From: an uncultured Solirubrobacteraceae bacterium
Lineage (GTDB): Bacteria; Actinomycetota; Thermoleophilia; Solirubrobacterales; Solirubrobacteraceae
Assembly: GCA_964588985.1 (NCBI GenBank)
Contig: CAZPQW010000010.1
Coordinates: 1-64,000 of the forward strand
Direction: 5' to 3'
DNA length: 64,000 nt
Positions 13,946 to 36,970 of this stretch are shown here, piece after piece; position 1 is the stretch's first letter, and the number at the start of each line of letters is the position of its first letter. Position numbers and translations under genes: made by a program. A model generated the notes under the pieces. It saw only the letters and a list, made by a program, of their open reading frames with translations. It had not been told where the DNA came from and ran no database searches.

Positions 13946-15088
13946 TTATGTTTTGACCTCGCTCTCCTCTGGGCGGCCAGTGAGTTCGTGGGCCCTGCGC
14001 GCCGTGTACTCGGCAACCTGCTGCTCCACTCGGCGCAGCCCCTCCATCTCTTGTTCAAGGCCCTCCGTGATCTGTGCGTCTTCGCCAGCCATCTGAACTC
14101 CATGCTCGCCGACGGTGTAGCGAGTCACGGCGATCGGTGTGGCGATCCCCTGCAGGGTTAGTTGGGCCACCGCCTCGTTGCGGTCGGCACAGAGAATGAA
14201 GCCGACTGTGGCGCGATCCTCGTCGTGAGCGACAAGCTCGTTGACGGCGTTGACGTACAGGTTCATCTTGCCGGCGAACTCGGCTTGGAAGCTGCCGACC
14301 TTGAGGTCAATGACGACGAAGCGGCGGGTGGGGTGGTGGTAGAAGAGGAGATCGAGGATGAACTCCTCCCCGCCGACCTCCAGCGACTTCTGGCGCCCAG
14401 CGAAGTAGAAACCCTCACCGAGAGCCAGCATGAAGCGTTCGATGTCGGTCAGCAGCGCCGCTTCCAGGTCGCGCTCCTTGGCGCCGTCAGCCAGCCTCAC
14501 GAAGTCCAGCACCACGGGATCTCGTGCTATGCGCTGCACAGCTGCAGCATCGCCAGCATCCAGCGTCCGCTCAAAGTTGGTGATCGCCGCACCCTCGCGC
14601 TCATGCAGGCCAGTGGCGATATGAGCTTGTAGCTGCGCTCGGGTCCAAGCACCAGCACGCTGGGCGTACCAATCCCTGATGTCGCGGTCATCGAGCCTCT
14701 GCACCAGCTCGACAATGTGCCCCCACGGAAGGTCTTGCACACCGTGTGCGAGATCTGACTCGTCTGGCCAGGCGAGGGCAAAAGACCTCATGCGTGCGAG
14801 GTTTGCCGGCGAGAACCCGGTGACTCCAGGGAAAGCTGTACGGAGATCTGCCGATAGCTGCTGTACCACCCCGAGCGTTCGCCGTCCCCGCTCAGAGCCA
14901 GCCTCTGCCTGACGCCGCTCAATCTCCTTGCCGATCTGCCAGTACACCCCGATCAGCTCAGCGCTGATTGCTCTTGCAGCTCGCGCCTGAGCGCCGCGGA
15001 TGCGACCCTTGATGTCCTCAAGGAATTCCTCGTAGCTGCGGCCGAGCTCGGGGCTCTCGAAGGCTGGATGAGTCGGTAGATCAGACAT
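13946..15088 (-). CDS. YhcG/DUF1016 PDDEXK nuclease domain protein
   Basis: YWQIG, GFSPANL..MR.F, LPWGH, DLLFYH, IDLK, GKMNLYVN. Confidence 0.92.
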   Translation of the reverse strand: MSDLPTHPAFESPELGRSYEEFLEDIKGRIRGAQARAARAISAELIGVYWQIGKEIERRQAEAGSERGRRTLGVVQQLSADLRTAFPGVTGFSPANLARMRSFALAWPDESDLAHGVQDLPWGHIVELVQRLDDRDIRDWYAQRAGAWTRAQLQAHIATGLHEREGAAITNFERTLDAGDAAAVQRIARDPVVLDFVRLADGAKERDLEAALLTDIERFMLALGEGFYFAGRQKSLEVGGEEFILDLLFYHHPTRRFVVIDLKVGSFQAEFAGKMNLYVNAVNELVAHDEDRATVGFILCADRNEAVAQLTLQGIATPIAVTRYTVGEHGVQMAGEDAQITEGLEQEMEGLRRVEQQVAEYTARRAHELTGRPEESEVKT

Positions 15089-15200
15089 CTGCGGACCGAG
15101 CCTATCGATCACATGAGTCGTTTCTCGGAAGGTCTCTACACCGTGTGAGAGACCTACCGCCGAGCCTCGCAGGCCGACCTCGGAAGCATCGCGACGACGA

Positions 15201-15368
15201 TCATTCGGGAAGCGGCCGCCGCAGATCGAAGAGCCCCGACAGCGCCTCCTCGTTCATCCCCGTCTCTTGGAGCACCTGCTCAACCGCCTCGCCCAACTTG
15301 ACGACGGCCCGCTGCACCTCGTCCTCGTTGCGCTCGAGCGGGATGTAGAAGCCGATGACCTGGCCGGG
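15201..15368 (-). pseudogene. 5'-truncated Phd/YefM-like antitoxin remnant, followed by an aborted PIN-like start
   Basis: Start-less frame GQVIGFYIPLERNEDEVQRAVVKLGEAVEQVLQETGMNEEALSGLFDLRRPLPE*; ATGA overlap into MIVV..., with DAS out of frame. Confidence 0.5.
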
Positions 15369-15369
15369 A

Positions 15370-16044
15370 CTACGCACCCGCCACGCTCTTGGCGTACGCC
15401 GTCCGTTCGGCTGTGAGCTGGCAGACGCGGCCGGGTAGCGATGCCATGACGTGCTGCAGAGCCGGTTCCCGCGCGCCGGACAGGCCCGGGCAGTAGATCG
15501 GCGCGGGCAGCGGGCCGGAGGCGGCGCCGGGGGCGTTCATGGGGCGCAGTTCGTGGGCTGCGCGCAGCGCGTGGGCGAACGTGTCTGAGAACACGTCGAC
15601 GGCGACCCGGCCGGTGTAGAGCTCGATCGAGCGGCCTTCGTCGTAGATCGTCGCGGGCACGCCGCGCAGGAGCGTGTTGCGCTGCGGGCCGAGCGACGCG
15701 TTCGAGTGCAGGCGGTAGAGCACCGTGGTGAGCTGCAGCGGCAGCAGGCAACTGCCGCTGCCGAAGATGCCCTTGTTCTGCACGCAGTCGCCGTAGTACA
15801 CGCTGTCGCCGAGCCTCGAGATGTAGCCGTTGAGGCCGTCCGCGGAGGCGAGCGGGCTGCCGTCGAAGCGCGGCCCCACCCAGTAGGTGCGGAAGTACGG
15901 GAACGTCTGCGCTTCGGCGAGTTCGGCAGCGGAGATCGGCGCGGGATGGCTCGTGCCGCAGCCGCCCACCGCGACCGCCGCGCACGCACAGAGGACCGCG
16001 AGCGCGACGCGGGCGAGCGTGCTGGTGTGCGTTGGCGCGGCCAT
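15370..16044 (-). CDS. Putative lipoprotein
   Basis: Signal peptide ending in VGGC lipobox-like site. Confidence 0.7.
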   Translation of the reverse strand: MAAPTHTSTLARVALAVLCACAAVAVGGCGTSHPAPISAAELAEAQTFPYFRTYWVGPRFDGSPLASADGLNGYISRLGDSVYYGDCVQNKGIFGSGSCLLPLQLTTVLYRLHSNASLGPQRNTLLRGVPATIYDEGRSIELYTGRVAVDVFSDTFAHALRAAHELRPMNAPGAASGPLPAPIYCPGLSGAREPALQHVMASLPGRVCQLTAERTAYAKSVAGA

Positions 16045-16068
16045 GGCCGTCAGTATCTTGGCGTGCGG

Positions 16069-17697
16069 ATGACCCCGGCGCATGCTCCCACCGGCTCGCC
16101 GCGTTCCGCGCCGGTGGCTATCGCGGCGCTCGCCGCGGTGCTTGTGGGCGCGTGGCTGCTCGTCGACCCCCATACCCCCGATCTGGCGGCGCAGGTGTAT
16201 CGCATGGACCTGTACCGCCAGCTGGGGTTCGTGGTGTGGGACGAGCACTGGTACGCCGGCCACCACATGCCCGGCTACAGCCTGCTGTTCCCGCCGCTCG
16301 GCGCGCTGCTCGGGGTGCGGCTGCTGGGAGCGCTGTGCGTGCTCGCGTCGAGCATGCTGTTCGAGCGACTCGCGCGCTCGCTCTACGGCGACGTGGCGCG
16401 GTGGGGCGCGGCGTGGTTCGCGGTCGCGGCGCTCGGCGACGTGTGGTCCGGTCGCGTCACGTTCGCGCTTGGAGTGACGCTCGCGGTGGGCGCGGCGCTC
16501 GCGTGGCGGCGCGGGCACCCGGTGTGGGCGGGCGCGCTCGGCGCGCTGTGCGCCTGCGGAAGCCCGATGGCGGGCGCGTTCCTCGGGCTCGCGGGGCTCA
16601 CGGTTGCGCTCGCCGACCGCTCGCCGCGCGCGCTGCTCGCCCTGATGCTCCCCGCGGCGGTCGTGGTGCTGGGCCTGGAGACGCTGTTCCCCGAAGGCGG
16701 CTACGAGCCCTTCCCCGCGACGTCGTTCGCGGTGACCGCGCTCGTGACGATGGGGTTCGTAGCGGGGCTGCCGCGCGAGGCGAGAACGCTGCGCATCGGC
16801 GGGCTGCTGTACCTACTCGTGTGCGTCGCGTGCGTGCTCGTGCACACGCCCGTCGGCAGCAACGTCGAGCGCTACGGCGTGCTGCTTGCGGGGCCGCTGC
16901 TGCTGTGCGCGCGGATGGCCCAGCGTGCCGAGCGCGACGGCGCGGCGGGGACTCGGGTCGGCCTGGCGGGACCCGCGGTGGCGGCGCTCGCGTTGTGCGT
17001 GACGGCCGTGTGGGTCGTGTGGGGCCCCGTGCGCGAGACGCTCGCGGTGGCCGGGAGCGAAGCGACGAGCGCTTCCTACTACGCCCCCGTGAAGCGCTTC
17101 CTCGCCGGCGTGCAGGCGCAGGGGGGACCTGTACGAGTGGAGGTGCCGATGACGCGCTCGCACTGGGAGGCTGCGCTGCTCGCCGACGACGTGTCGCTCG
17201 CCCGCGGCTGGGAGAAGCAGCTCGACACGCGTTACGACGACGTGCTGCTCACACCCGGGCTCACCGCTGCTTCATACGACCGCTGGTTGCACGAGGAGGC
17301 GGTTGCGTACGTCGCGCTTCCGGACGCGAGGGTCGACCCGCCCAACGCCCGGGAGGGACGCCTGATCCTCGGCGGGCTTCCGTACCTGCGCCTGGTGTTC
17401 ACGAGCACGCACTGGCGCATCTACGAGGTGCTCGCGCCCACACCGCTGCTCAGTGGGCCCGGAACGCTGGTCTCGCTCGGCCATGACTCGTTCTCACTGC
17501 GCGCGAACGGAGCCGGCAGCTTCCTCGTGCGCGTGCGCTTCAGCCGCTACCTGACGCTCACGCACGGCAGCGGCTGCGTGCGAGAGGCGCCGGGCGGATG
17601 GACGGATGTGAGCCTCGACGCGGCGGGCGCCGCCACGGTCGCAGCGCGCTTCTCGCTCGCAAGGGCGCTCGGCACGGGCGCTTCGTGCACGCGCTGA
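16069..17697 (+). CDS. Multi-pass membrane protein (possible GT-C type glycosyltransferase)
   Basis: DLAAQ...W...WYAGHH.PGYS N-terminal motif and many TMs. Confidence 0.65.
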   Translation: MTPAHAPTGSPRSAPVAIAALAAVLVGAWLLVDPHTPDLAAQVYRMDLYRQLGFVVWDEHWYAGHHMPGYSLLFPPLGALLGVRLLGALCVLASSMLFERLARSLYGDVARWGAAWFAVAALGDVWSGRVTFALGVTLAVGAALAWRRGHPVWAGALGALCACGSPMAGAFLGLAGLTVALADRSPRALLALMLPAAVVVLGLETLFPEGGYEPFPATSFAVTALVTMGFVAGLPREARTLRIGGLLYLLVCVACVLVHTPVGSNVERYGVLLAGPLLLCARMAQRAERDGAAGTRVGLAGPAVAALALCVTAVWVVWGPVRETLAVAGSEATSASYYAPVKRFLAGVQAQGGPVRVEVPMTRSHWEAALLADDVSLARGWEKQLDTRYDDVLLTPGLTAASYDRWLHEEAVAYVALPDARVDPPNAREGRLILGGLPYLRLVFTSTHWRIYEVLAPTPLLSGPGTLVSLGHDSFSLRANGAGSFLVRVRFSRYLTLTHGSGCVREAPGGWTDVSLDAAGAATVAARFSLARALGTGASCTR

Positions 17698-17712
17698 GCA
17701 GGCCGGCGACCG

Positions 17713-19080
17713 TCAGCCTTTCTTTCGCCGCGACGCGGATCTCTTGTGAGAAGAGCTTTTGCGTGCGGGTTTGATGGAGGCTTCGAGCGGCGCGAGAGCG
17801 TAGAGCCCGGTCGTCCCGGTGAGGTAGATGTCGGTGCCGTCGCTGATCACGGGGTCGAACGAGCCGGTGTCCTTTTCGAACAGCACGCGGCCGGTGGAGA
17901 TGCCGAGGCCGTAGGTGTGGTGGCGGCCGAGCACAGCGAAGTAGACGGTCTTGCCGACGATCGTGGGCGAGCCGGAGATGCGCCCGCGGCCGTTGAAGTG
18001 CCAGCTGACGTGCCCCGAGCGCGCGTCGATCGCGTAGAAGTCGCCGCTGTAGGAGCCCACGTACACGGTCGGGCCGAGGCCGGGGGCGTTGGTGACGGCG
18101 GGGGAGGAGTAAACGTAGGCGCCGGTCTGCACCGCCCAGTCGAGCTTCCCACTGAACGCGTCGTACGCATACACCCGCCCGTCGGTGTTGCCGAGGAACA
18201 CGCGCCCGTAGATCACCGCGGGGGTCGAGTAGAACGTGCCGCTGCCGAGCAGCGCGCCTTCGGAGCTGCTGCGCCACAGCCGCCTGCCGGTCTTCTCGGA
18301 GATCGCCTGCACGTGGCCGGAGTAGTCGCCGAAGTACAGGACGCCGCCGGAGAGCGTCGGGCTCGCCTTGACCGCGCCCGCCGCCTTGTACGTCCAGATG
18401 ACGCGGCCGTCGTGCGCGTTCAGCGCATACACCAGCCCGCTCTGGGAGCCGAAGAACACGCGCCCTTCGTCGACCATCGGCGAGGACTCGCTCGGGCTCG
18501 GCAGCGGACGCAGCCAGCGGACCGCGCCGGTCGTCGAGTTGAGCGCCACGATCCGGCCGGGGCTCCGAGGATGGCCGCTCGAGAGCACCGTCGCATACAG
18601 CGTGTTCGCGGTCACCGCGGGGGTCGACGCGGACAGTTTGCCGAGTGGTTTGGTCCAGTACACGTGGCCGTTGCGCTTGTCGATCGCGCTCAGCACCGCG
18701 TCGTCGGCGAGCTGGTAGATGCGGTCGCCGTGGATCACCGGCGGGAACTCCAGCAGCGAGTGCTGGTTGACCACCCACAGCCCCCTGAACGGCGCGTGCA
18801 CGCGCGCGGGGGCGGGGAAGAAGCGCGTGTGGTTCTTCGTGTAGCCGTACAGCGGCCACGCGAACCGTTCCGGGCCTTTCGTCGGCAGCGCCGTCGGGGT
18901 CGGCTGCGGGATGAAGCGCGCGTGCGGGTGGTAGATGTTGCCGGTGCGGTGGCGTTTGTACTCATAACCCGCGAACGCGACCGCCGCGACGAGCACCGTC
19001 AGGGCGATCAGCGCGGCGCGGATGCGCCTGAAGCGCAGCGAGTGGCGCGGCGTGGGGCGCCGTGGGGGAGTGTCGCTCAT
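17713..19080 (-). CDS. PQQ-like beta-propeller repeat protein (BamB-like)
   Basis: Repeated SSP/..YA.DA..G...W blades after an N-terminal TM. Confidence 0.88.
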   Translation of the reverse strand: MSDTPPRRPTPRHSLRFRRIRAALIALTVLVAAVAFAGYEYKRHRTGNIYHPHARFIPQPTPTALPTKGPERFAWPLYGYTKNHTRFFPAPARVHAPFRGLWVVNQHSLLEFPPVIHGDRIYQLADDAVLSAIDKRNGHVYWTKPLGKLSASTPAVTANTLYATVLSSGHPRSPGRIVALNSTTGAVRWLRPLPSPSESSPMVDEGRVFFGSQSGLVYALNAHDGRVIWTYKAAGAVKASPTLSGGVLYFGDYSGHVQAISEKTGRRLWRSSSEGALLGSGTFYSTPAVIYGRVFLGNTDGRVYAYDAFSGKLDWAVQTGAYVYSSPAVTNAPGLGPTVYVGSYSGDFYAIDARSGHVSWHFNGRGRISGSPTIVGKTVYFAVLGRHHTYGLGISTGRVLFEKDTGSFDPVISDGTDIYLTGTTGLYALAPLEASIKPARKSSSHKRSASRRKKG

Positions 19081-19099
19081 GCGCCTCCGCCGAGGCGGG

Positions 19100-19435
19100 T
19101 CAAGCGGCGAGCTTGCGGGAGTCCGCGCCGCGCGCCTGCGCGGTCGCCACCTGTGCGCTCTCGACCGAGGCCGTCGCCGCCTGCCTGCCGCGCCGGCGGC
19201 GGTTGCGCGCATGTGCGCCACCCGCACGCGCTCGCGCGGAGGGGCGACGGATCCTCGCGGCGATCAGGTCCGCGACGCTCAACACGAGCAGCCAGGCGCA
19301 CGCGACGACGAGCGGCGGCAGCGTGAGGCCGGAGACGAGCGCGAGCACGTCGTGGCTGCCGTTCAACGACCAGTTCCAAAGCAGGTAGTCGCCGATGGCG
19401 AGCCCGAGGACAGGTACCAATGGCCTGCGCGACAC
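19100..19435 (-). CDS. Small membrane protein
   Basis: Two hydrophobic segments, fits the gap between neighbours. Confidence 0.55.
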   Translation of the reverse strand: MSRRPLVPVLGLAIGDYLLWNWSLNGSHDVLALVSGLTLPPLVVACAWLLVLSVADLIAARIRRPSARARAGGAHARNRRRRGRQAATASVESAQVATAQARGADSRKLAA

Positions 19436-19515
19436 GGGCGAACCCTAACCGGGAACGGAGACGGACCGCCCGCTGGGCGCTCCCACGGGCCGGCGGACGC
19501 CTATGATCGCTGCCG

Positions 19516-20367
19516 ATGAGCGCCGTCGTCGAGCAATCCGAGATCTTCGCGCCGGGGGTGCTGGAGGGCCAGGTGGCGCTCGTGACGGGCGGCGGAACGG
19601 GGCTCGGCAGGGAGACGGCGCGCGAGTTGGCGCGCTGCGGCGCGCGCGTGACGATCTCCGGACGGCGCGAGGAGGTGCTCGAGCAGGCCGCGGCGGAGCT
19701 GTGCGAGGCGGGCGGGGACGTGGACTGGGTCGTGGGGGATGTGCGCGAGCCCGAGGACGCTCGGCGGCTCGTGGGCGAGGTGCTGGAGCGGCGCGGGCGG
19801 CTCGACCTGCTCGTGAACAACGCGGGCGGGCAGTTCTTCAGCCCCGCCGAGCTGATCGCGGCGAAGGGCTGGAAGGCGGTTTGGCGGCTGAACGTCGAAG
19901 GGATGCTCAACATGTCCGAGGCCACGTTCGAGCTCGCGTTCGAGCCCGCGGGGGCGGGGGGCAGGATCGTGAACGTGACGCTGTCCCCGCACCACGGCAT
20001 GCCCGGCATGGCGCACTCGGGGTCGGCGCGCGCGACCGTCGAGGCGCTCACGCGCGAGCTGGCGCGACGGTGGGAGACGTCCGGGGTGGCGGTGACGGCC
20101 GTTGCGGCGGGACACTTCGAAACGGAGGTGCTCGCGAAGTACCCCGCGAGCGTGCGCGCGGGCATGTCCCGCACCGTACCGCTGCAGCGTCTCGGCTCCG
20201 TCGCCGAGCACGCCTGGCTCGTCGCCATGCTCGCCTCGCCGCTCGGCCGTGCGTTCAACGGCTCGACGGTCACGCTCGACGGCGCGCGCGACAACTGGTG
20301 CGGCCCGTGGCCCCCCGAAGGGCTAGCCGACGAGTCCGGCGAGGTGCCGGTGGAGGAGCGGCGGTAA
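19516..20367 (+). CDS. SDR oxidoreductase (2,4-dienoyl-CoA reductase-like)
   Basis: TGGGTGLG, NNAGGQF, AHSGSARA. Confidence 0.9.
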   Translation: MSAVVEQSEIFAPGVLEGQVALVTGGGTGLGRETARELARCGARVTISGRREEVLEQAAAELCEAGGDVDWVVGDVREPEDARRLVGEVLERRGRLDLLVNNAGGQFFSPAELIAAKGWKAVWRLNVEGMLNMSEATFELAFEPAGAGGRIVNVTLSPHHGMPGMAHSGSARATVEALTRELARRWETSGVAVTAVAAGHFETEVLAKYPASVRAGMSRTVPLQRLGSVAEHAWLVAMLASPLGRAFNGSTVTLDGARDNWCGPWPPEGLADESGEVPVEERR

Positions 20368-20399
20368 CATGGCCAAGTCCGAAGGCCAAATCAGGGCGT

Positions 20400-20470
20400 G
20401 CGGGCGAGGTGTTGTGGTTGCACAGGAGCCTTCCAAGCTTCTAGGGCGGGTTCGATTCCCGTCGCCCGCT
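20400..20470 (+). tRNA. tRNA-Gly(TCC), CCA not encoded
   Basis: GCGGGCG/CGCCCGC acceptor stem, GGAGC-CTTCCAA-GCTTC anticodon arm, GGTTCGATTCC T-arm; atypical A8,U14,U21. Confidence 0.9.
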
Positions 20471-20482
20471 TTTGTCTTGCCA

Positions 20483-20556
20483 CGGGGAGTGGCGCAGTCT
20501 GGTAGCGCACCCGGCTGGGGGCCGGGCGGTCGCAGGTTCAAATCCTGTCTCCCCGA
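20483..20556 (+). tRNA. tRNA-Pro(GGG), CCA not encoded
   Basis: CGGGGAG/CTCCCCG acceptor stem, CCCGG-CTGGGGG-CCGGG anticodon arm, GGTTCAAATCC T-arm. Confidence 0.96.
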
Positions 20557-20709
20557 TGAAAAGTCGCAGGATCAGAACCTTGCACCTCGTCGCGAATGGT
20601 GGCGAAAGCCGCAAAAACGCTGGGATTCTTGGTCGAGCTTTCTCGTCTGTTCCCGGCTGTTCCCGGCACGCGGGACCGCAAAAGGACCGCAGGGAGCACG
20701 TTGCGGTCC
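20544..20709 (+). repeat. att core 1 (CCTGTCTCCCCGAT) plus left arm with GGACCGCA boxes
   Basis: Core 20544-57; boxes 20673, 20684, inverted at 20702; ~150 bp similar to 24126-24275. Confidence 0.85.
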
Positions 20710-20922
20710 CTCTGGCCAGGGGCGCACGGGTCCGAAGCCCGCCAGTCGCGCTGATTGGAGGCGGGATGATGGCCCCAACTGGACGAGGTCACGCGGACGC
20801 CCGGCAGCCCAATTCATCGTCCTCAGGTGCGAGCCCGCTCGCGCTGATGCGTTCGCAAGAGCAACCCCCGCCCGCGCCGCGTTGGCTGGCTCATCTCGGT
20901 CCTCGTCCCGAACACGGATATG

Positions 20923-20928
20923 TAGAAT
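20923..20928 (+). promoter_or_regulatory. Putative -10 box for the retron transcript
   Basis: TAGAAT ending 7 nt before the first retron inverted repeat. Confidence 0.6.
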
Positions 20929-20935
20929 TGTCGCA

Positions 20936-21073
20936 GGCTGCAACGCTGGCGTCTGTGTTTCCCTGGCGATTCGCTTGGGCTATCGAACCTCTCGCTTTTA
21001 CCCGCCGCCCGCGCCCGGAGTATCTCAATCGCTGGCAGTAGGAGAAGAAGGTAGATTCGCCAGCGTTGCAGCC
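20936..21073 (+). ncRNA. Retron msr-msd ncRNA
   Basis: Perfect 16-bp inverted repeats GGCTGCAACGCTGGCG (20936-51) / CGCCAGCGTTGCAGCC (21058-73) enclosing a short hairpin and a long imperfect hairpin, directly upstream of the RT. Confidence 0.85.
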
Positions 21074-22751
21074 AACGACCGACATCCCGGTCCTCCTGAC
21101 CCGTGCCGACGTGGCCAGGCATGTCGGCACGTCACTGCGTCTCCTGACCTGGTGGATCTGGGCCTACGACGAGGACAACCGCTACTACGAGTTTGAGGTC
21201 GACCGGCGCACGGGAGGCACTCCGCGCATCATCAGCGCCCCGATCAAGCCGATCAAGGACTTCCAGCGTGCTTTGTTGCCGATGCTCGATGGCGCCTACT
21301 CGCCACGCCCACACGTCCACGGCTTCGCACGCGGCCGCAGCCCACAGACGAACGCCGCAATCCACCGTGGGCAGCGCTGGATCCTTCGCATCGATCTCAA
21401 GGACTTTTTCCCGACCGTGCACTTCGGTCGTGTTCGCGGCGTCTTCTCGGCGCACCCGTTTGACTTTCCAGAGGAGGTTGCGACGGTCCTGGCGCAGATC
21501 TGCTGCCATCGCAAGGTGTTGCCGCAGGGCGCACCGACATCACCGGTGATCTCCAACCTGGTCTGTCGCTCCCTCGATTCCGAGCTCAGCCGCTACGCGA
21601 AATCAAGGCACTGCCACTACACGAGATACGCCGATGACATCTGCTTTTCCTCCGGACAACGCGTGTTTCCCGGTGCGCTGGCAAGCATCGTGAACCAGCA
21701 ACCGGTGTTGCACCCGGATCTCCGGCGATTGATCGAGAACAACAACTTCACGATCAACGACGACAAGACCCGGTTGATGAGGTGGAGCCAGCGCCAACGG
21801 GTCACGGGCATCATCGTCAATCAGCACCTGAATGTTCCGCGTGAGTACAGACGACATATTCGGGCGGTCCTGCACATCTGGGATCAGTACGGCGAAGCCG
21901 ATGCGGTGGCGGCGTTCGCGCGGGCGACGGTACGCAATTGGCCACCTGAGAAGCCCGCGGCTGACTTTCCGCTAGTGGTTCGCGGTCAGTTGCAGTATCT
22001 CGGTGCGGTGCGCGGCTACGACGGCGTCTACCAGCGGCTCGCCGTCAAGCTTGCGGCCCTGGACCCGTCCTTCAAAGCCACCGCGCCGACGGTCCCAGCC
22101 CAGGGCCTCGTGACGTTCGCGACTGAGGGGCCGAGCGACCCCCAACATCTCGAGGCAGCCACACGGTTCTTTCGGGCGAACGGCGAGTTCGACGAGCTTG
22201 ACCTCCGGCACGTCAATCACATGCCGCCCAAGAACGACAATGAGCTGTGGAAGTGGCTGCAAAAGGAAAAGGACGTTCCGAACCCTGTCCCACGCGTGGG
22301 CGTGTTCGATGCCGATACAGGCTACGCGCTGAAGCTGGGGGAAAAAGGATGGGAGCACCTCGGCAACGGTGTCGTCGCGGTCGCGCTGGCAGCTGCTCCG
22401 TGGCTCTCCGCGGGCCAACGCGTTTGTATCGAGATGCTGTACCCGCCATCGGTTCTCGCGAGCTCCGACAAGGAGGGTCGGCGTGTGTGGTTGCGGAGCG
22501 ATTTCGACGAGGCGGGCGTCAGCCACGACGGCCGCTACCAGATGCAGTATCCGCAGAAGACGACCCTCGTGGTGGAGCACGTTCATCCGGTGGGGGATTC
22601 GGGCGAGTCGGTCGGCCTAGCGAAGGTCGCGTTTGCGGACGCCGTAAGGCGCGGGCAGCCCCCTTTTGATCACGTGGACTTTGAGGGCTTCCGCCCCACC
22701 CTCGAGCGATTTTGGCGCGCGGTCGCCACAGCGCAGACGTGGTGCACTTAG
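21066..22751 (+). CDS. Retron reverse transcriptase fused to a C-terminal TOPRIM domain (Ec67-like, type I-C)
   Basis: NAAIH (region X), DLKDFF, LPQGAPTSP, YADD, VTG (region Y); C-terminal TEGPSD...FDAD TOPRIM pattern. Confidence 0.9.
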   Translation: MQPTTDIPVLLTRADVARHVGTSLRLLTWWIWAYDEDNRYYEFEVDRRTGGTPRIISAPIKPIKDFQRALLPMLDGAYSPRPHVHGFARGRSPQTNAAIHRGQRWILRIDLKDFFPTVHFGRVRGVFSAHPFDFPEEVATVLAQICCHRKVLPQGAPTSPVISNLVCRSLDSELSRYAKSRHCHYTRYADDICFSSGQRVFPGALASIVNQQPVLHPDLRRLIENNNFTINDDKTRLMRWSQRQRVTGIIVNQHLNVPREYRRHIRAVLHIWDQYGEADAVAAFARATVRNWPPEKPAADFPLVVRGQLQYLGAVRGYDGVYQRLAVKLAALDPSFKATAPTVPAQGLVTFATEGPSDPQHLEAATRFFRANGEFDELDLRHVNHMPPKNDNELWKWLQKEKDVPNPVPRVGVFDADTGYALKLGEKGWEHLGNGVVAVALAAAPWLSAGQRVCIEMLYPPSVLASSDKEGRRVWLRSDFDEAGVSHDGRYQMQYPQKTTLVVEHVHPVGDSGESVGLAKVAFADAVRRGQPPFDHVDFEGFRPTLERFWRAVATAQTWCT

Positions 22752-22864
22752 AGTGCAGAGGCGGCAAGCTGCGGAGCCCGGCTTTCTAGAGCCAAGTTAG
22801 GCCACGGCAGATCGGCTTGTCGAGGATCGTTTTCTGTCTCATGTGGGACCAGGCTTGCCGCGAT

Positions 22865-23821
22865 CTATGGAGTCGAGGCGTCGTCGAGTACCCACTTTTT
22901 GCGCTTGTCCCAGTTTTTTCGCCAAGCCGGGGATCCCTTTGGCGGGAGGACGAATGTGGATGCGAGGACCAGCGGTCTTGGCGTGTCGAGCATCGCAATC
23001 TCGACATGGGTGCGAATGGATGCCGCGATCAGAGCATCCATGTTTTCGGTCTTCGCGACGCCAGCGACGATCAATCGCGCTCCCCCATCGACCGCGAGAT
23101 GGTGCTGATCTTGTCTAACGAACACGCTGTCGGGGTCGTGAGGATGAATTTTGATCTTGTCGAGCGGTACCGAAGTGCCAAATGAGGTCCAGAGGACCCC
23201 CTTATTCAGATGGCGCGGGATGACAAGACGTTCCCCCTTGACTGGGCTCAAGACAATCTCCAGCTGCAACGAGCAAGAACACAGTTCGTTGCCCTCCGGG
23301 GGACGGATAGATTTGGCCCAGAGGTGGCCACGAATCATCTCGACGCTTGGTAGGAACCGGAGAGGCCGAAATACGCTTAGGAGCTCGGAGCGGGTAGCAG
23401 TGCGGATCGCGGTGGCCTCCCGCCATGGAATCTCCTTGGTGACGGGCGATTGAGACGTCTTGACAACGTACGGCGCGTGATCCGTCCCGAACTCCAGAGC
23501 GACTGCACTCTTACCTCCTACACTGACCGCCCTATCGCGAAGCGCTGGAACGACTGCGTCGAAGTAGCTTGCTACCTGTGCCCACCAGTTGTGGGTCGCG
23601 GTGTGCTCACAACCAACAAGTCCGCGCTTCTCGTCGATGCCGATGATCCACAGGACGGGTGCTCCTCGACCCGCGTTGGCGTGGCCGGCGATGCGTCGTG
23701 CTGCCTTCTGCGGGTTTGGCCAAGCGGACTTCAACTCGATTCGCGAGTCCTCGACGTGCTGTTTCGCCTCGATCCTGGCGAGGACATCACGGACAATCGC
23801 ATCAAGGTCGGTCGCATGCAT
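22865..23821 (-). CDS. Schlafen/AlbA_2-domain protein
   Basis: EDSRIELKS...IAGHANA.G...IIGIDE; C-terminal domain not recognised. Confidence 0.75.
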   Translation of the reverse strand: MHATDLDAIVRDVLARIEAKQHVEDSRIELKSAWPNPQKAARRIAGHANAGRGAPVLWIIGIDEKRGLVGCEHTATHNWWAQVASYFDAVVPALRDRAVSVGGKSAVALEFGTDHAPYVVKTSQSPVTKEIPWREATAIRTATRSELLSVFRPLRFLPSVEMIRGHLWAKSIRPPEGNELCSCSLQLEIVLSPVKGERLVIPRHLNKGVLWTSFGTSVPLDKIKIHPHDPDSVFVRQDQHHLAVDGGARLIVAGVAKTENMDALIAASIRTHVEIAMLDTPRPLVLASTFVLPPKGSPAWRKNWDKRKKWVLDDASTP

Positions 23822-24071
23822 GGTCGCTCGTGACGCCTAGCGGGTGACGACGGGTCTCGAGACGCAAGGATACGGTGAGTGCACATCTCCTTCAACAGCA
23901 GAGGATCGCCGCAGGCCCGACAGCCAAGATCGTTTCTGCCTAATCGGGACGAACTCCGGATCGCGACTAATGCGCACGGCTGGTTTACCGCCAAAGCGTC
24001 CTCCCAGGTCTCCAAACCGCAGCGCCGATCCCACGACCAGGCGGCTACGGCAGGCGAGCCGGGAGGGATCG

Positions 24072-24294
24072 AGACCGCAAACGGACCGCAGAACCACGAA
24101 AAATCGCTCAGGAAAGCCAACCGAACCTGTCTCCCCGATGAAAAGTCACAGGTTCAGAACCTTTGACAGATCCATGAACGGGAGCAAAGCCGCGAAAAGA
24201 CGGGGGTTGGTGGTTGGCTGTTCTCGCGTGTTCCCGCTGTTCTCGGCACGCGGGACCGCAGAAGGACCGCAGCGAAGGGCAAAAGGGGACCGCA
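24072..24294 (+). repeat. Unit 1/2 junction: right arm boxes, att core 2, left arm boxes
   Basis: (A/G)GACCGCA at 24072, 24083; core 24126-39 identical to tRNA end; GGACCGCA at 24253, 24264, 24287. Confidence 0.9.
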
Positions 24295-24453
24295 GGAGAA
24301 CAGCAGAGTTGTCGAATGCTGTCAGCCACTCAGAGGCCTTGGTGTGAATACATGTCGGTGCCCGGAGTTGTCCCGTCGGTACGCCTGCGGGGGATTCCAG
24401 GCAGGTAGCTCGCCGTAGTGTCGGCCCTCGCACGAGCGAAACTCCGCGCGGCG

Positions 24454-25356
24454 CTAGCTGGTCGGCGTCGGCGGAAGCGTCTCGTCTCGCTCGCGGACGC
24501 GCAGTACGGCGTGGATGGTGGCGAGGTAGACGTAGAACGCCCACCGCAGCCACGTCAACCGGTCGTAGTCGCCGCGCTGGTGGCGGTTCTGGTGCCTGAT
24601 CGCGAAGCCGTTCGCGATGTGGAACAGCTCCCTCTCGTCCTTTGTCAGCATCGCCTCGTGGATGTCCTCGCGTAGCGCCTCCAGCACGTCCGCTAGGTCT
24701 CGCACGGCGACGCGGCGGTCATCGAGGCTGGCGCCGCGCGTGCGGAAGCGCTTGGTCGCCGAGTCGAGCTTCGAGGCGATCTCGGCCTCGGTGCTCGGGG
24801 GCACGGCGGCGGTCAGCAGCCCATGAAACTCGGCGGGTCCGGCCTCCACGACCATGCCGTCGTCGTTCATCTCGTACGGTGGATCGTGCAGCCTCAGCAC
24901 ACCATTCATCTCGTCACGGAACTCCGCCTGCCCGGCGGCTGCGTTGAACGTGTCGTAGTGCCAGCCGCACCGGGCGTAGTCGTGATACCGGCCGTCAATC
25001 GGCCGCGAGATAAGGTCGTGCATCGCCTCGACTACGTCGAACAGAGTGTCCTCGTCCCAGGCTTCATACGGTGCCATCCACTCCTCGGGACCAACCTGCG
25101 AGATCTCCCAATACGGCCAGACTCCCCTGCGCCTGATTGTGCGCATGAAGTACGCGCTGGGATTTGACCCAAGGGTGCCATCGACGTCCCCAGCATCAAC
25201 GCAGTCGTAGCCGAACGCCTCCTGCATGTAATGCTGCTCGCGGAAGTGATCGAAGACGTTGATCACAAGCTCGCGAAACTCAGGAAAGGGCAGCGGTTCG
25301 GCCTTCGGACCGCGACCCTGACGCTCGGAGAAATACTGCTTCACGGTGTCGGCCAT
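24454..25356 (-). CDS. AbiJ-like protein with putative C-terminal HEPN domain
   Basis: YFSERQG N-terminus; helical C-terminus LADVLE...IANGFAIRH. Confidence 0.6.
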   Translation of the reverse strand: MADTVKQYFSERQGRGPKAEPLPFPEFRELVINVFDHFREQHYMQEAFGYDCVDAGDVDGTLGSNPSAYFMRTIRRRGVWPYWEISQVGPEEWMAPYEAWDEDTLFDVVEAMHDLISRPIDGRYHDYARCGWHYDTFNAAAGQAEFRDEMNGVLRLHDPPYEMNDDGMVVEAGPAEFHGLLTAAVPPSTEAEIASKLDSATKRFRTRGASLDDRRVAVRDLADVLEALREDIHEAMLTKDERELFHIANGFAIRHQNRHQRGDYDRLTWLRWAFYVYLATIHAVLRVRERDETLPPTPTS

Positions 25357-25438
25357 ATAGCGGCCCAGGATAGCCCCAAGCCTCTGGCGATCACCCACGT
25401 TCGACGACACATCCGCGGTGACGGGCAGACTGCTCCTG

Positions 25439-25584
25439 ATGCCGGAGATCGACCCACTCGCGAAGCTGATCCTAGACGAAGCGGTGCACGGTCTCGACAC
25501 GCAGAGCGAGACGCTGAACAGCTGCGCAACCGCACCGGCGTCCTCATCGCCGCGGCCACGATTGCGACCGCCTTGCTCGGGTCG
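25439..25584 (+). pseudogene. Frameshifted, truncated membrane protein gene
   Basis: MPEIDPLAKLILDEAVHGLDTQSETL continues as QLRNRTGVLIAAATIATALLGS after an apparent 1-bp deletion near 25516. Confidence 0.5.
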
Positions 25585-25962
25585 ATCCCCACATGTTCTC
25601 GGCCATGTCCCGTGAGGGCCCAGCCGGGCGGGAGGCGGAGGCTACCAGTCCTAGTTGGGCATGCCAGCCGCTTGGGTGGATGCTCGAATCGCGTCCGCAC
25701 GAGGCGTTTAGATAGAAACGAACCACCCGAATGAAGACGCCACGATCATGAGACGTTTTCCCTGCAACTCCAACATGTAGAGGGTCATGACTGCTCCGCC
25801 GCTCAACCCACCAAGCGCAGAGCGAGCCAGCACAGGGAATGCTTGGACCTGCGGGGGCCGGGCAATGGCGATGGGTGCGAACCTGCAAGGCTTTCGCCTC
25901 GCCAGCGGCGGTCCGATCCACATTGCGAAGGGTTTCGGAGAGGGACGGTCAGTCGGCAGGCG

Positions 25963-26163
25963 ATGATGAATCTACTCAAGCTTTTCAACCGGGCATTGGG
26001 CGGTGGAACGACCGCTCCCCCCTCAACTGGCCGCGCAAGCCAGGCCTCAATCGCGCTTGAGGAGTTGCGGTCGGCGCGGGAGGATCAACGTCTCCACGAG
26101 CTCCTGGCTTCAGCAGAAGCAGAGGGCGCCGCAGTAGAGAGTGCCGGTCGTAAGCACTGGTAG
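25963..26163 (+). CDS. Small protein, paralogue of 26813-27028
   Basis: C-terminal EELRSAREDQRLHELLASAEAEGAAVESAGRKHW aligns with the paralogue. Confidence 0.7.
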   Translation: MMNLLKLFNRALGGGTTAPPSTGRASQASIALEELRSAREDQRLHELLASAEAEGAAVESAGRKHW

Positions 26164-26170
26164 GTTGCGT

Positions 26171-26782
26171 CTACGCCGCGTGTAGCGGCACCCAAAGCGG
26201 CACCCAAAGCCGGATTTGGGAGTGATCCGCCGTAAAGGATCGCCGGAATCCATAGTGCTTTTCCATGTGTTCGGCGGTCGGAATGTTGTTGAGTGGATCA
26301 AGAACGGCGACTGGGGTTCCTTGCAGATGCGCGACCTTCAGGGCGATGTATATCGCGTAATGCATGATCAGCCGGCCAGGCGTCTCGCTGTTTCGATGTC
26401 GAGCTATCCACGCGATCAAGGACGCGCCTTGCACTGGCTCTGGGATGGAGCTGGGTTGTTCGTGGGGCAGTTCTTTCCGGTGCTCCTTATTGAGCTTGAT
26501 GGAGTCGGATGCCAGCGCGAAGAAGCCGTCTATCTGACGCCCAGATTCAGACTTGAGGACCCACGTGACGGTTGATGGATAGTCTGAAAGAGCCGACTTT
26601 CTCAGCCACTCCGCAGATTTTTTCCCGCTATCGGTTGGGACCGATTCAAACTCGTCGATCAGGGGGCGGAGATCGCCAAAAACCGACTCACGCGCGTTCT
26701 GCGGCGTCCATCGGAACCAGCCGTCATCGATACTCATGTCTGCTGGAAAATCAGCGTGATGCGTCGAGGTAGGTGCCGCCAC
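26171..26782 (-). CDS. Divergent GNAT protein, TacT/AtaT toxin-like
   Basis: FES...EWLRKSAL..TWV..IDGFFALAS...LIAWIAR...G..AVLDP...HYGF follows the GNAT toxin pattern. Confidence 0.65.
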   Translation of the reverse strand: MAAPTSTHHADFPADMSIDDGWFRWTPQNARESVFGDLRPLIDEFESVPTDSGKKSAEWLRKSALSDYPSTVTWVLKSESGRQIDGFFALASDSIKLNKEHRKELPHEQPSSIPEPVQGASLIAWIARHRNSETPGRLIMHYAIYIALKVAHLQGTPVAVLDPLNNIPTAEHMEKHYGFRRSFTADHSQIRLWVPLWVPLHAA

Positions 26783-26812
26783 GCCCCCATGACGTGCACG
26801 AGCAGGTGATGC

Positions 26813-27028
26813 TTACCACTGCTGGCGACCCTCCGCCTCGATCCTGGTTCCCTCGGCGACTGCGGATCGGAGCAAGTCGTGGACCGTGGGGTCGCGCTGT
26901 GCCTTGCGAAGCTCCTCGGGGTCAATGATCACCGACGGCGCGTTTCTTCTGGCTCCATCCACGGGTTGGAGTAGTCCCACGGAGTTGGCGGGATCTCCCC
27001 CCAGCACTGCGATCCCACTAGCCTCCAT
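26813..27028 (-). CDS. Small protein upstream of the GNAT gene (putative antitoxin)
   Basis: GAAGGAG RBS; co-oriented with GNAT; paralogue of 25963-26163. Confidence 0.7.
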   Translation of the reverse strand: MEASGIAVLGGDPANSVGLLQPVDGARRNAPSVIIDPEELRKAQRDPTVHDLLRSAVAEGTRIEAEGRQQW

Positions 27029-27169: not shown

Positions 27170-28516
27170 TCAATGCCAGTGAACGCCGGTGATGTTCATG
27201 CGGATCACGTCAGCTTCGCGCATCGAAACACCGGAGAGCCACGCTCCACTTAGGTCTGCGTCCGCGAGGATGGCGTGGTCGAGGCATGCGTCTCGCAAGT
27301 CGGCGCCTCGTAGGGTAGCGCCCCTTAGGTCTGCGCCGGTGAGGTCCGCTCCGCAAAGAACAGCCTCGGAGAAGTCGGTGCCCACTGCTACGCTTTCCAC
27401 CAGCTTCGCGGACAGCATGGACGCCTTCCGGAACGACGCATGGGCGATCACCGCGCTTGTAAGTTCAATCGAGTTGAGGTTTGCGCCAACGAACCTCGAC
27501 GCAACCAGATTCGACTTGGCGGCACGAACAGCCGCGAGGCCCGCTCGATCGAAAACAGCCCGATCCGCAAAGGCCGTACGCAGGTCGGCCCGGTCAAGTC
27601 GGGCGTCGCTGAGATCAGCGTCCGTCAGGAGGGCTCCGATCATCTCTGCATCGACGAACTCGCTCCTAGCGAGCTTCGCGCTGGTGGCGACGACACCGAG
27701 GAGTGAACTGCCGACGAAGCGTGCATCCCTGCAATCCGCATTTATGAAGCGGGCGCCGCTGAGGGTCGCGCCGGTGAAGTCGGCCTGGGAGAGCGACGCA
27801 TCACTGAAGTCCGCGTCGGCGAGATTGCTGGCGCTGAAGCGCGTTCGGTGTAGCTGTGTCTTACGGAACTGGCACCTAGGAAGCTGGCTGCGAGAGAAGT
27901 CCGTCCGAGCGAATTGGCCACGCGAGAGCCGTGCGCCCTCCATCGCCACTCCGCTCAAATCAATCGTCGGCATACGCGCATGGTCACTTCGTGGATCCCG
28001 TCGACCAAGGACGGACAGGGCTGTCTGGGTCTCGACGCTCGGCGTCCTCGGTGTGTTGTTCAGCGGTATCAAGCCCCGCACGTGTGCCGCCAACAGCTCG
28101 GTGATGGCGGGGTGATCGCGCCGCGAGTCTTGGGCGATCCGCTCAAGCGCGAGAATCCCGCCGATCGATACCGAGCCCGGCCGGTCGAGCTTTTCCACTG
28201 CCGAACTGAAGCGATCAGTCAGGTGTCCTTCCGCACTGATTCGCAGCGTTCGCGCTGTGAAGAAGGCCCCGATCAGCAGCAGTCCCCCGCCTATGGCCTG
28301 GAGGCCGATTGATCGAACGTCGTCCTGCAGTTTGATCTTCGCCGCATCCGGATGGTTTCCCGAAACTATCCAATGTGGCGCCCAGATGAGTGCGAGGGGC
28401 ACGAGGAGGCATACGGCAAGGAGGACGACGATGGTGAAGATCCCGACGGGTGATCTCCGCCTTCGCCGCCCTCCGAGCCGTCTATGGTCACGCTGCCATC
28501 CAAGACCTCCTTTCAT
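27170..28516 (-). CDS. Pentapeptide repeat protein with N-terminal TM segments
   Basis: TDRFSSAVEKL...GGILALERIA, then long A(D/N)LxX repeats. Confidence 0.9.
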   Translation of the reverse strand: MKGGLGWQRDHRRLGGRRRRRSPVGIFTIVVLLAVCLLVPLALIWAPHWIVSGNHPDAAKIKLQDDVRSIGLQAIGGGLLLIGAFFTARTLRISAEGHLTDRFSSAVEKLDRPGSVSIGGILALERIAQDSRRDHPAITELLAAHVRGLIPLNNTPRTPSVETQTALSVLGRRDPRSDHARMPTIDLSGVAMEGARLSRGQFARTDFSRSQLPRCQFRKTQLHRTRFSASNLADADFSDASLSQADFTGATLSGARFINADCRDARFVGSSLLGVVATSAKLARSEFVDAEMIGALLTDADLSDARLDRADLRTAFADRAVFDRAGLAAVRAAKSNLVASRFVGANLNSIELTSAVIAHASFRKASMLSAKLVESVAVGTDFSEAVLCGADLTGADLRGATLRGADLRDACLDHAILADADLSGAWLSGVSMREADVIRMNITGVHWH

Positions 28517-30295: not shown

Positions 30296-30477
30296 GGGCC
30301 GCAAAAAGACCGCAGAAGGGCGGAAAACCGCAAAGGAAAGCCAACATGAACCTTACTCCCCGATTGCAACGCCGTTGGATGCTGTGGGGGGCTGGGGGCG
30401 ACAGCCGAGTGGTCAATCGCTGTTTCTGGGCGTTCCGCCCACGCACCGCCCACGGCGTGAGGTTTTGACCGCCCACG
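30296..30477 (+). repeat. Unit 2/3 junction: right arm, variant att core 3, left arm of a second type
   Basis: GGGCCGCA 30296, AGACCGCA 30307; core CCTTACTCCCCGAT 30351-64 (12/14); CCGCCCACG at 30435, 30446, 30469. Confidence 0.8.
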
Positions 30478-30667
30478 GCGGGTCGCTACGGGTTTCGCCG
30501 GGGTGATGGCGTGGCACCGCTCGACCATCTCCTGGCGATGGCCGGGTACTCAGATCAGCGCGAGACGGTGGCGATGGCTAGAGGCAATGAGCGCTCAAAG
30601 GTAGATCCAGGACGGCGTCAGATTCCATGAAGCTCTCTAGATCCGGAGCGTGGGATACGGTGGACTG

Positions 30668-31540
30668 ATGAGCACAGCAGCATCACTCGTCCCGACATAC
30701 CGCGACCTACTCTGGCCCACGCTGCGGGCGGTACGCGAGATCGGCGACTCCGGAACGATTGAAGAGATCGTTGAAAAGGTTGTCGAGCTCGAGGGGTTTA
30801 CCGAGGAGCAGCAGGCCGTACCACACGGCGACGGGCCTCAGACACAGATCGAGTATCGCCTCGCATGGGCGCGTACCTACCTCAAGGGCATGGGCGCGCT
30901 AAACAACAGCGAGCGCGGTGTCTGGAGCACGACTGAGCTGGGCCGGACGATGACGTCGGAGGATGTCGCGGCTCGGCACTCGGCGTACAAGGCTCAGTTG
31001 CGAGAGGCTAGGAGGGCCAAGCAGCTTGCGAGGGCAGAGCAAGAGGACGGTCTCGAAGAAGACGAGTCGGTGCCACGCGACTGGAAGGAGCGGCTGCTTG
31101 AGGTGTTGTTCGAGGTCCCGCCGGACAGCTTCGAGCGGCTGGCAAGGCGCTTGCTCCGTGAGGCCGGGTTCGTCTCGGCTACCGTCACCGGGAAGAGCGG
31201 CGACGGCGGGATCGACGGGATCGGGGTCTATCGCCTGTCGCTGGTGAGCTTTCCGGTCTTCTTCCAGTGCAAGCGCTATAAAGGCAGCGTAGGTGCCGGT
31301 GCGGTCCGAGATTTTCGCGGTGCGATGAGTGGCCGCGGCGATAAGGGGCTGTTGATCACGACCGGCAGCTTCACGGCCGACGCCAAGCAGGAGGCGACCC
31401 GCGATGGCGCTCCGCCTGTCGATCTCATCGATGGCGAGCGGCTATGCGATCTCTTGAAGGAACACAAGCTGGGAGTGCGCACCATCGTCCGCCAAGTCGA
31501 GGATGTCGAGGTTTCTCCGGAGTTCTTCTCCGACCTGTAG
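30668..31540 (+). CDS. mrr: Mrr-family type IV restriction endonuclease
   Basis: Mrr_N (RLAWARTYL, RGVW) and Mrr_cat (FERL, GDGGIDG, QCKRY, LIDG). Confidence 0.92.
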   Translation: MSTAASLVPTYRDLLWPTLRAVREIGDSGTIEEIVEKVVELEGFTEEQQAVPHGDGPQTQIEYRLAWARTYLKGMGALNNSERGVWSTTELGRTMTSEDVAARHSAYKAQLREARRAKQLARAEQEDGLEEDESVPRDWKERLLEVLFEVPPDSFERLARRLLREAGFVSATVTGKSGDGGIDGIGVYRLSLVSFPVFFQCKRYKGSVGAGAVRDFRGAMSGRGDKGLLITTGSFTADAKQEATRDGAPPVDLIDGERLCDLLKEHKLGVRTIVRQVEDVEVSPEFFSDL

Positions 31541-36959: not shown

Positions 36960-36970
36960 CGGACCGTGAA

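Follow-up and report, generated by a model that had tools for sequence, protein, structure and literature searches.

Among retron immune systems, the single-protein retrons are the simplest; they are attractive for the production of single-stranded DNA (ssDNA) and for genome editing. To our knowledge, Eco2 from Escherichia coli is the only one of them that has been studied. Its trimer is held together mainly by multicopy single-stranded DNA (msDNA). Eco2 (Ec67; type I-C1; PDB 9LM3, 9I2F, 9I2G and 9S1F) consists of a non-coding RNA (ncRNA) followed by a single gene, in which a reverse transcriptase (RT) is fused to a Toprim domain. Here we analyse a locus of the same layout at positions 20923 to 22751 of a 64,000-nucleotide stretch of DNA (contig CAZPQW010000010.1 of assembly GCA_964588985.1; hereafter the window), which comes not from E. 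coli but from an uncultured Solirubrobacteraceae bacterium, a high-GC soil organism. We judge it likely that this locus is a complete, intact single-gene RT-Toprim retron of type I-C architecture, with an RNA and a mechanism that follow Eco2 by homology, carried on a cassette within a defence island.

As described in passages of PMC12916289, the Eco2 RT primes on the branching G15 and the resulting 67-nt msDNA acts as the scaffold of a trimer and as a cage for the Toprim domains, whose catalytic residues are E374, D378, D460 and D462. According to the same passages, phage DenB starts the decay of the msDNA, whereupon the freed Toprim cuts tRNAs and translation stops, and defence needs both active sites (PMC12916289).

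Passages of Mestre et al. (2020; PMC7736814) assign types XII (RT-TIR), XI (RT-protease) and I-C to RT clade 8 and regard the Toprim of type I-C as a lineage of its own in the Toprim superfamily. Table 1 of that work recognises type I-C by two Toprim motifs, EGxxD (motif IV) and DxD (motif V), and enters subtype I-C3 as a clade-8 RT with a Toprim domain bearing both motifs and an ncRNA family given as ‘Nd’. In passages of later work, a 2026 survey counts I-C3 as a known low-count type (PMC13712802) and, for clade-8 subtypes without an earlier ncRNA prediction, validated ncRNAs are reported by Khan et al. (bioRxiv 2024.01.25.577267). No I-C3 ncRNA was found in print in the passages of these sources or in a literature search, which falls short of proof that none exists.

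Against this background, the locus offers an intact, well-delimited example from an uncultured high-GC soil bacterium, whose catalytic residues and RNA limits are defined and for which a covariance model is available. It bears on whether the mechanism of msDNA cage and tRNA cleavage extends beyond Proteobacteria and whether such an RT is functional in high-GC hosts.

The RT-Toprim fusion gene and its nuclease domain

The fusion gene occupies positions 21066–22751 on the forward strand and encodes 561 amino acids from a TTG start codon that lies inside the second arm (a2) of the ncRNA; a homologue at 90% identity begins with methionine at the residue of this TTG. The NAxxH, YADD and VTG motifs noted in a preliminary description of the window are present as NAAIH at residues 96–100, YADD at residues 188–191 (21627–21638, forward strand) and VTG at residues 246–248; NAxxH (region X) and VTG (region Y) are named as retron RT hallmarks in passages of Mestre et al. 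(PMC7736814). Thirty-five full-length homologues at 41–90% identity, picked from the best 120 of 5,804 matches, were aligned, and H100, Y188–D191, T247 and G248 were invariant in the RT part. Full-length proteins 86–90% identical to that of the window occur in other assemblies (P0002–P0004).

Model searches marked the RT as that of a retron. Over the RT part, Pfam returned RVT_1 alone (5.9e-22), while the NCBIfam models for the retron TIR, Ec67 and St85 families matched at 2.7e-93, 2.1e-91 and 7e-57, as against 2.9e-11 for the group II intron RT. The five best PADLOC models all belonged to types XII, XI and I-C; RT-TIR_XII scored 425.7 and 425.2 bits (PDLC02962 and PDLC02961), RT-Protease_XI 371.4 and 369.7 bits, and RT-Toprim_I-C 368.3 and 367.6 bits, with E-values from 6e-128 to 1e-110 and near-full-length coverage by the XII models and by two I-C models (PDLC02965 and PDLC02968). 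Twelve of the 24 matches in a sequence search of the PDB were retron or retron-type RTs by name, headed by Ec67 (E 6.4e-55, residues 11–277). The whole protein was modelled by AlphaFold2 with a confidence score (pLDDT) of 87.3, and the best Foldseek match of this model in the PDB was once more Eco2/Ec67 (E 3e-32, ~630 columns).

The C-terminal part of the protein, from about residue 345 to residue 561 (22098–22748, forward strand), is a Toprim-like nuclease domain. The preliminary description had pointed to an EGxxD/DxD domain here, and both motifs were found, motif IV as EGPSD at residues 354–358 (22125–22139, forward strand) and motif V as DAD at residues 415–417 (22308–22316, forward strand). 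Their acidic residues E354, D358, D415 and D417 were invariant among the 35 homologues, as were H361, E456, R473 and K520. Residues 338–561 alone were modelled by AlphaFold2 at a pLDDT of 94.2, and a Foldseek search of the PDB with this isolated domain returned, at E <= 0.001, two chains only, both of Eco2: 9lm3_A (5.4e-6, TMq 0.59) and 9i2f_C (3.3e-5, TMq 0.57). Eco2 is thus the best PDB match of the window by RT sequence, by whole fold and by isolated C-terminal fold. OLD-family and other Toprim nucleases, such as Gabija GajA and the effector of retron I-B, were absent from the fold matches at that threshold; these effectors have E and DxD residues in a metal-dependent nuclease fold, as the domain described here is expected to.

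A profile comparison with hhalign of 25 window-type domains against 17 Ec67-type domains (including two RefSeq ‘retron Ec67 family’ proteins) gave a probability of 97.4% and an E-value of 1.3e-11 over 174 columns. The motifs fell in register (TEGxSD/TEGKTD, FDxD/DND, IEMLY/IEDLF, K..FA and F.GF.P), so that EGxxD, DxD, IE(M/D)L, (G)K..FA and F.GF.P of Eco2/Ec67 all align with the window family, and the two profiles matched each other's members at 19–35 bits. As a control, the window-type domains were compared with nine C-termini of RT-TIR relatives, two of which had been checked by Pfam (TIR_2 at 3e-21 and 6.5e-16); the probability was 0.2%. These comparisons and models support homology of the C-terminal domain to the Ec67-type Toprim, and the values of 97.4% and 0.2% therefore make the PADLOC label RT-TIR_XII a mislabel. 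Annotation resources handle this protein poorly: Pfam and NCBIfam miss the nuclease domain and PADLOC misnames it. The distance from Eco2 is considerable, with ~24% identity overall and 14–15% in the Toprim domain, which the PDB sequence search did not detect.

The msr-msd RNA and its conservation

A 138-nt RNA gene (20936–21073, forward strand), made up of arm a1, an msr hairpin, an msd hairpin and arm a2, abuts and overlaps the RT-Toprim gene. Arm a1 (GGCTGCAACGCTGGCG; 20936–20951) and arm a2 (CGCCAGCGTTGCAGCC; 21058–21073, overlapping the RT start codon) are exact reverse complements over 16 bp. The arms, which a repeat finder extended to 22 nt at 91%, are separated by 106 nt. None of 198 other 230-nt stretches taken from both strands of 15000–27000 matched the repeat score of the window at a loop of 85–150 nt. 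In the minimum-energy fold of 20930–21080 (-69.4 kcal/mol), the a1/a2 stem encloses a short msr hairpin, CCCTGGCGATTCGCTTGGG (CCCUGGCG-AUU-CGCUUGGG; 20961–20979), and a long imperfect hairpin at about 20987–21052, which is the predicted msDNA template; the fold had a z-score of -4.33 and none of 200 shuffles was as stable. The preliminary description had read this region in the same way, as a TAGAAT hexamer followed by perfect 16-bp inverted repeats around a short and a long hairpin in a compact RNA of ~138 nt, and all of these features were recovered at the coordinates given here.

The hexamer TAGAAT (20923–20928, forward strand) lies 7 nt before a1 and is a putative -10 element of the ncRNA promoter, an assignment that derives from its sequence and from the position of TANNNT in relatives, where it starts 11–14 nt ahead of a1 in 11 of 17 loci. 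For the branching G there are two candidates. G20951 is the last base of a1 and is able to pair with C21058; inspection by eye places a G at the a1 3′ end or beside it in 10 of 13 loci, with G20951 of the window among them. G20955, 4 nt further on and at the site that the preliminary description had suggested, is the third base of a YUG that runs into a U-rich tract, an arrangement that, again by eye, recurs before the msr hairpin.

The same arrangement was sought upstream of related genes. An inverted repeat or a match to the covariance model described below was found at the same place in 14 of 15 loci that encode the protein type of the window. Among the full-length relatives, 11 of 13 had an ungapped repeat of 11–22 bp, with a loop of 91–142 nt, that ended no more than 55 nt before the RT gene; one of these first 13 relatives (L137) was later recognised as Ec67-type. 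The repeat of L003 is bulged and fails the ungapped background test, and at L086, where only 147 nt of upstream sequence was available, nothing convincing as an inverted repeat was found. Repeats were also present in three loci added later, from Herpetosiphon, Bacillus cereus and Sinorhizobium meliloti (L166, L164 and L165 among those loci). In the background test of 14 loci, no stretch equalled the observed repeat in six, and at most 6.5% of stretches did so in six more.

The inner 11 nt of a1 and a2 were 99.4% paired in the 15 cognate combinations and 40.4% paired in 210 swapped ones, and the a1 arms of different loci were 26% identical to one another. As the arms were picked by an inverted-repeat scan, what is informative is their constant position together with their unrelated sequences. 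Inverted repeats upstream of homologues, whose absence the preliminary description had named as grounds for rejection, are therefore present, conserved in position and unrelated in sequence.

A hairpin after a1 and a U-rich spacer occurred in every locus of the comparison set. In a MAFFT alignment of the msr hairpin from 13 loci (the rows of L007, L137 and L084 were visibly misaligned and were retained), 88.2% of cells were paired, compared with 70.0% in shuffles (0 of 500 as high) and at most 58% in slid controls, and six of the eight pairs had changes on both sides; the msr hairpin thus covaries. Long hairpins occupied the msd position in 11 other loci. A MAFFT alignment of the whole ncRNA from 12 loci was too poor to use (37% column identity) and was discarded; a three-sequence alignment, a covariance model and the hairpin-only alignment were used instead.

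The covariance model (R1), which the preliminary description had proposed building from upstream regions of homologues, was made from the window, L001 and L002, with compensatory changes at 14 of 45 pairs. It scored 119.6 bits on the window, which is a training sequence. At L175, a locus from another species of the genus that took no part in model building, it scored 84.1 bits (E 2.2e-17), directly upstream of the RT gene and on its strand. A match also lay at the expected place in L003 (28.2 bits, E 8.6e-4) and, weakly, in L081 (E 0.55), and the model missed the RNA at the Herpetosiphon locus, though an inverted repeat and hairpin are present there. A further weak match (12.9 bits, E 0.13) was noted upstream of an Ec67-family RT on a B. 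cereus plasmid (L164, 1321–1462), which hints that the two ncRNA families may be related.

Across the relatives, the ncRNA appears to have a common layout, in which a U-rich spacer separates arm a1 from a single msr hairpin, whose conserved loop reads (U)AUUC or GAUCC, and an AAGGU(A/U)GAA box precedes arm a2. The arms, a loop of ~110–120 nt and the single msr hairpin are shared with Eco2-type RNAs, and the Ec67-family loci L164, L165 and L137 are alike in this respect. This RNA architecture and the protein fusion are conserved features of a family that comprises about a thousand protein clusters.

By eye, the AAGGU(A/U)GAA-like box stands directly 5′ of a2 in most loci (at about 21045–21057 in the window). 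It sits where reverse transcription should begin, and in some loci it could double as the ribosome-binding site of the RT gene.

Proposed mechanism, alternatives and place among retrons

By analogy with Eco2, we infer that the locus produces msDNA and has a defence function. Transcription of the ncRNA would begin just before a1, a1 would pair with a2, and the RT would prime on the 2′-OH of G20951 or G20955. It would then copy 20980–21057 into an msDNA of about 65–75 nt, a length predicted from that of Eco2, which would be kept bound and would hold the Toprim active site (E354, D358, D415 and D417) closed. Phage activity that damaged or removed the msDNA would free the nuclease, which would cut cellular RNA, as it does tRNA in Eco2, so as to halt translation and infection.

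Several observations weigh against a functional type I-C retron of this kind. The best-scoring PADLOC label is RT-TIR_XII, not I-C, and the NCBIfam scores, which cover the RT part only, lie under both curated cut-offs: 313.3 bits against 600 for the retron TIR family (NF042941, residues 14–335) and 307.2 bits against 450 for the Ec67, or I-C1, family (NF038237, residues 12–280). Pfam and PDB profile searches with the C-terminal 220 residues gave no useful match; Ec67-type Toprim domains are likewise without a Pfam match, so the silence of Pfam is not evidence against a Toprim domain. On the RNA side, an Rfam search of 20000–23500 at E <= 10 found two tRNAs and chance matches and no retron RNA family; a sigma-70 consensus scan of 20300–23200 called no promoter, leaving the hexamer at 20923–20928 uncalled; and a G opposite a G at the a1/a2 junction, seen in L084 and L137 only, was not evident in the window. 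No RNA sequencing run was listed for the locus, which is not evidence either way. The spacing from the catalytic E to DxD is 61 residues in the window and 86 in Eco2, and the Toprim domain of the window family carries an extra insertion of about 25 residues relative to Eco2; regulation by msDNA could therefore differ from that of Eco2. We know of no counterpart, among phages of the host of the window, to the T-even DenB that triggers Eco2.

These points leave room for other explanations, the best surviving of which we consider unlikely: that this is a genuine retron in which the Toprim domain serves msDNA maturation by RNase H-like trimming of the msd, in an element that is selfish or regulatory rather than defensive. 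Such hydrolysis of the msd RNA template by Toprim is noted as an earlier speculation in passages of PMC12916289, and our own case for defence at this locus is inferential; the same passages, however, report a need for both active sites in Eco2 defence and cleavage of tRNA by the freed Toprim. The surroundings of the domain also speak for defence, as the locus lies among Mrr, AbiEii and other defence genes, its patchy distribution fits that of defence islands, and the occurrence of the domain on STAND NTPases, helicases, a methylase and an FtsK-like ATPase (see below) is the pattern of a portable effector.

Somewhat less probable again is a decayed or silent remnant, with its features in place and the element no longer expressed or active in the host. 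An open frame of 561 codons, intact catalytic and family-invariant residues throughout, an inverted repeat perfect over 16 bp, the 86–90% identical full-length proteins in other assemblies and identical contigs in several metagenomes speak against decay, even if there is no consensus promoter, translation starts from a TTG inside a2 and no integrase turned up in the cassette or the island open reading frames (ORFs) tested.

Least credible is a type XII retron, in which an RT with a TIR NADase would act by depletion of NAD+ rather than by RNA cleavage: the top two PADLOC scores with their near-full coverage and the best NCBIfam match (Retron_TIR_antiphage, over the RT part only) favour it, but it is ruled out as far as computation goes by Pfam, which found neither TIR nor TIR_2 in the C-terminal domain at E <= 10 and did find it in true XII relatives, by the hhalign control, by the lack of any TIR structure among the Foldseek matches listed and by invariant residues that follow the Toprim pattern E..D/DxD.

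The evidence thus supports assignment of the locus to the type I-C (RT-Toprim) retrons, with an identifiable msr/msd RNA, and the claim of the preliminary description that it is a complete retron of this type holds on the strength of the retron RT models, of Eco2/Ec67 as best PDB match in sequence and fold, and of the homology of the Toprim domain. To place the RT, a FastTree phylogeny was built from the RT domains of 124 fetched relatives, with 40 short or cut rows and the truncated L005 and L140 left out and with no outgroup. The RT of the window grouped with retron RTs, as the preliminary description had led one to expect. Its closest group (100% support) comprised four sequences, three from Actinomycetota metagenome-assembled genomes (MAGs) and one from a genome of the same genus; the nearest RTs came from Gaiellaceae, Solirubrobacteraceae and Actinomycetes MAGs.

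Forty Ec67-type RTs formed one clade (99% support), with the window outside it. The description ‘Ec67-like’ therefore holds for architecture and fold and fails for subfamily, because the RT falls outside the I-C1 clade and below the NCBIfam Ec67 cut-off (307 against 450 bits). The 14 rows with the Toprim type of the window were not monophyletic (8 changes were needed, of which well-supported branches force 1) and were interspersed with TIR-fused and otherwise fused RTs. Together with the PADLOC ranking of types XII, XI and I-C, this position among Toprim- and TIR-fused RTs places the window in clade 8. Its RT is close to those of types XII and XI, whose models score at least as high as those of I-C over the RT part; the C-terminus differs from that of type XII in not being a TIR domain, and Pfam found no protease domain of the kind that marks type XI.

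The window shares the EGxxD and DxD motifs with I-C3 of Mestre et al., sits outside the Ec67 clade and matches PDLC02965 and PDLC02968 over their full length. Its subtype is probably I-C3, or else the group of ‘type I-C mislabelled as XII’ of Jasnauskaite et al. (2026), to go by sequence; such mislabelling accounts for the PADLOC label. In either case, the locus belongs to the known RT-Toprim retrons as a divergent member and does not represent a new kind of system. If membership of I-C3 is true, the conserved ncRNA described here for the window family fills the ‘Nd’ entry of Mestre et al. A bolder proposal, which we put forward as tentative and rather doubtful, is that of a distinct, widespread retron subtype with ~1,150 clusters at 50% identity, a portable divergent Toprim effector and a previously undescribed ncRNA family that fills the I-C3 ‘Nd’. 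Since the tree was a quick one without an outgroup, we claim no order of events; the window-type Toprim, which forms a grade giving rise to TIR-fused and other fused RTs, may have been ancestral among the effectors in that part of clade 8. One might also speculate that the element could serve as a source of ssDNA for high-GC hosts.

Cassette, defence island and spread of the domain

Two tRNA genes precede the retron on the forward strand, both called by ARAGORN: tRNA-Gly(TCC) at 20400–20470 (Rfam tRNA, 51.3 bits) and tRNA-Pro(GGG) at 20483–20556 (Rfam tRNA, 63.2 bits). The last 13 nt of the latter open an att-like direct repeat (20544–20695, repeat family D4), which contains the tRNA-Pro 3′ end and about 140 nt more. 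The right copy, at 24126–24275, matches the left in two blocks (20544–20581 with 24126–24163 at 95%, and 20653–20695 with 24233–24275 at 91%), and was matched at 80% by the left repeat in a search of the window's own genome. Since the two copies flank them, the retron and an orphan ORF make up a 3.58-kb cassette. That ORF (22865–23821, reverse strand; 318 aa) has a weak match to Schlafen AlbA_2 (E 0.006) and is the only neighbouring ORF in the cassette, which holds no separate effector gene; no homologue of it was found outside the window's own genome among 163 loci, and it is orphan cargo, not a conserved partner of the retron.

A third, shorter copy of the repeat lies near 30300–30360, the further copies thus standing 3.58 kb and ~9.8 kb beyond the first, and in congeners, too, the 3′ half of tRNA-Pro is found in additional copies a few kb away from the gene. 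The pattern resembles the outcome of tandem integration of several small islands at tRNA-Pro. A search for the tRNA-Pro 3′-end pattern with up to three mismatches found the gene itself only, the shorter copies having come from the repeat search. There was no integrase among the cassette and island ORFs tested, a test that was not exhaustive, and no empty-site form was seen in contigs of sequencing runs. Contigs from four other rhizosphere metagenome runs covered the right repeat and the junctions of the ncRNA with the tRNA and with the RT gene, and showed no differences there; four joints listed in run contigs had sides of 21–25 letters and were disregarded.

The GC content falls to 0.58–0.68 between about 20.4 and 42 kb, from 0.70–0.75 in the flanks. 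Beyond the cassette, this region encodes weak matches to AbiJ_NTD4 and PDC-S32 (24454–25500, reverse strand), a pentapeptide-repeat protein (27170–28516, reverse strand), an Mrr type IV restriction enzyme (30650–31540, forward strand; 3.7e-31), AbiEii (31578–33005, reverse strand; 2.3e-77), a mad8-like or TraG-like ATPase (34598–36220, forward strand) and an AAA_16 ATPase (36335–38158, forward strand). The cassette appears to have been acquired horizontally at the tRNA-Pro site and to form part of a defence island. With its tRNA-Pro repeats and no integrase among the ORFs tested, the 3.6-kb cassette may be a minimal unit of defence cargo that is mobilised in trans.

A profile of the Toprim-like domain, searched against 1.84 billion proteins, matched 1,153 cluster representatives (50% identity) at E <= 0.001 and 961 at E <= 1e-10. 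The best 150 of the 1,153 representatives were mostly either fragments or proteins of ~560–600 aa that carry the domain C-terminally, and the named relatives that were fetched came from Actinomycetota, Cyanobacteriota, Chloroflexota, Gemmatimonadaceae and a Humidesulfovibrio MAG. Ten representatives of unusual architecture were checked, of which three had no Pfam match and seven (P0235, P0268, P0226, P0243, P0207, P0250 and P0238) carried other modules: the domain lay N-terminal on NB-ARC or NACHT NTPases of ~1,150 aa, and was partnered elsewhere by an FtsK-like ATPase, an Eco57I-type (type IIG-like) methylase, a DEAD-box helicase, another helicase C-terminal domain or an AAA ATPase. The same nuclease module thus recurs in other immune architectures, which suggests that the divergent Toprim-like domain may be a portable immune effector.

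The domain is patchily distributed among genomes. In a sample of the phylum, a credible match occurred in one of 401 genomes, that of the window itself (G000); a second match (G002) was rejected as not credible, as it spanned 77 residues at E 5.4e-4 with three stop codons. Within the genus, 2 of 61 genomes carried it. The genome and metagenome scans used general RT patterns, and the matches listed from them under-sample the close family. Viral contigs scanned with the domain alignment gave eight pattern matches and no relative. One homologue, on a Microcoleus sp. contig (L005, RT gene near 2974), has an open frame of 437 aa, matches the Toprim profile weakly (27.5 bits) and is possibly a truncated or frameshifted copy.

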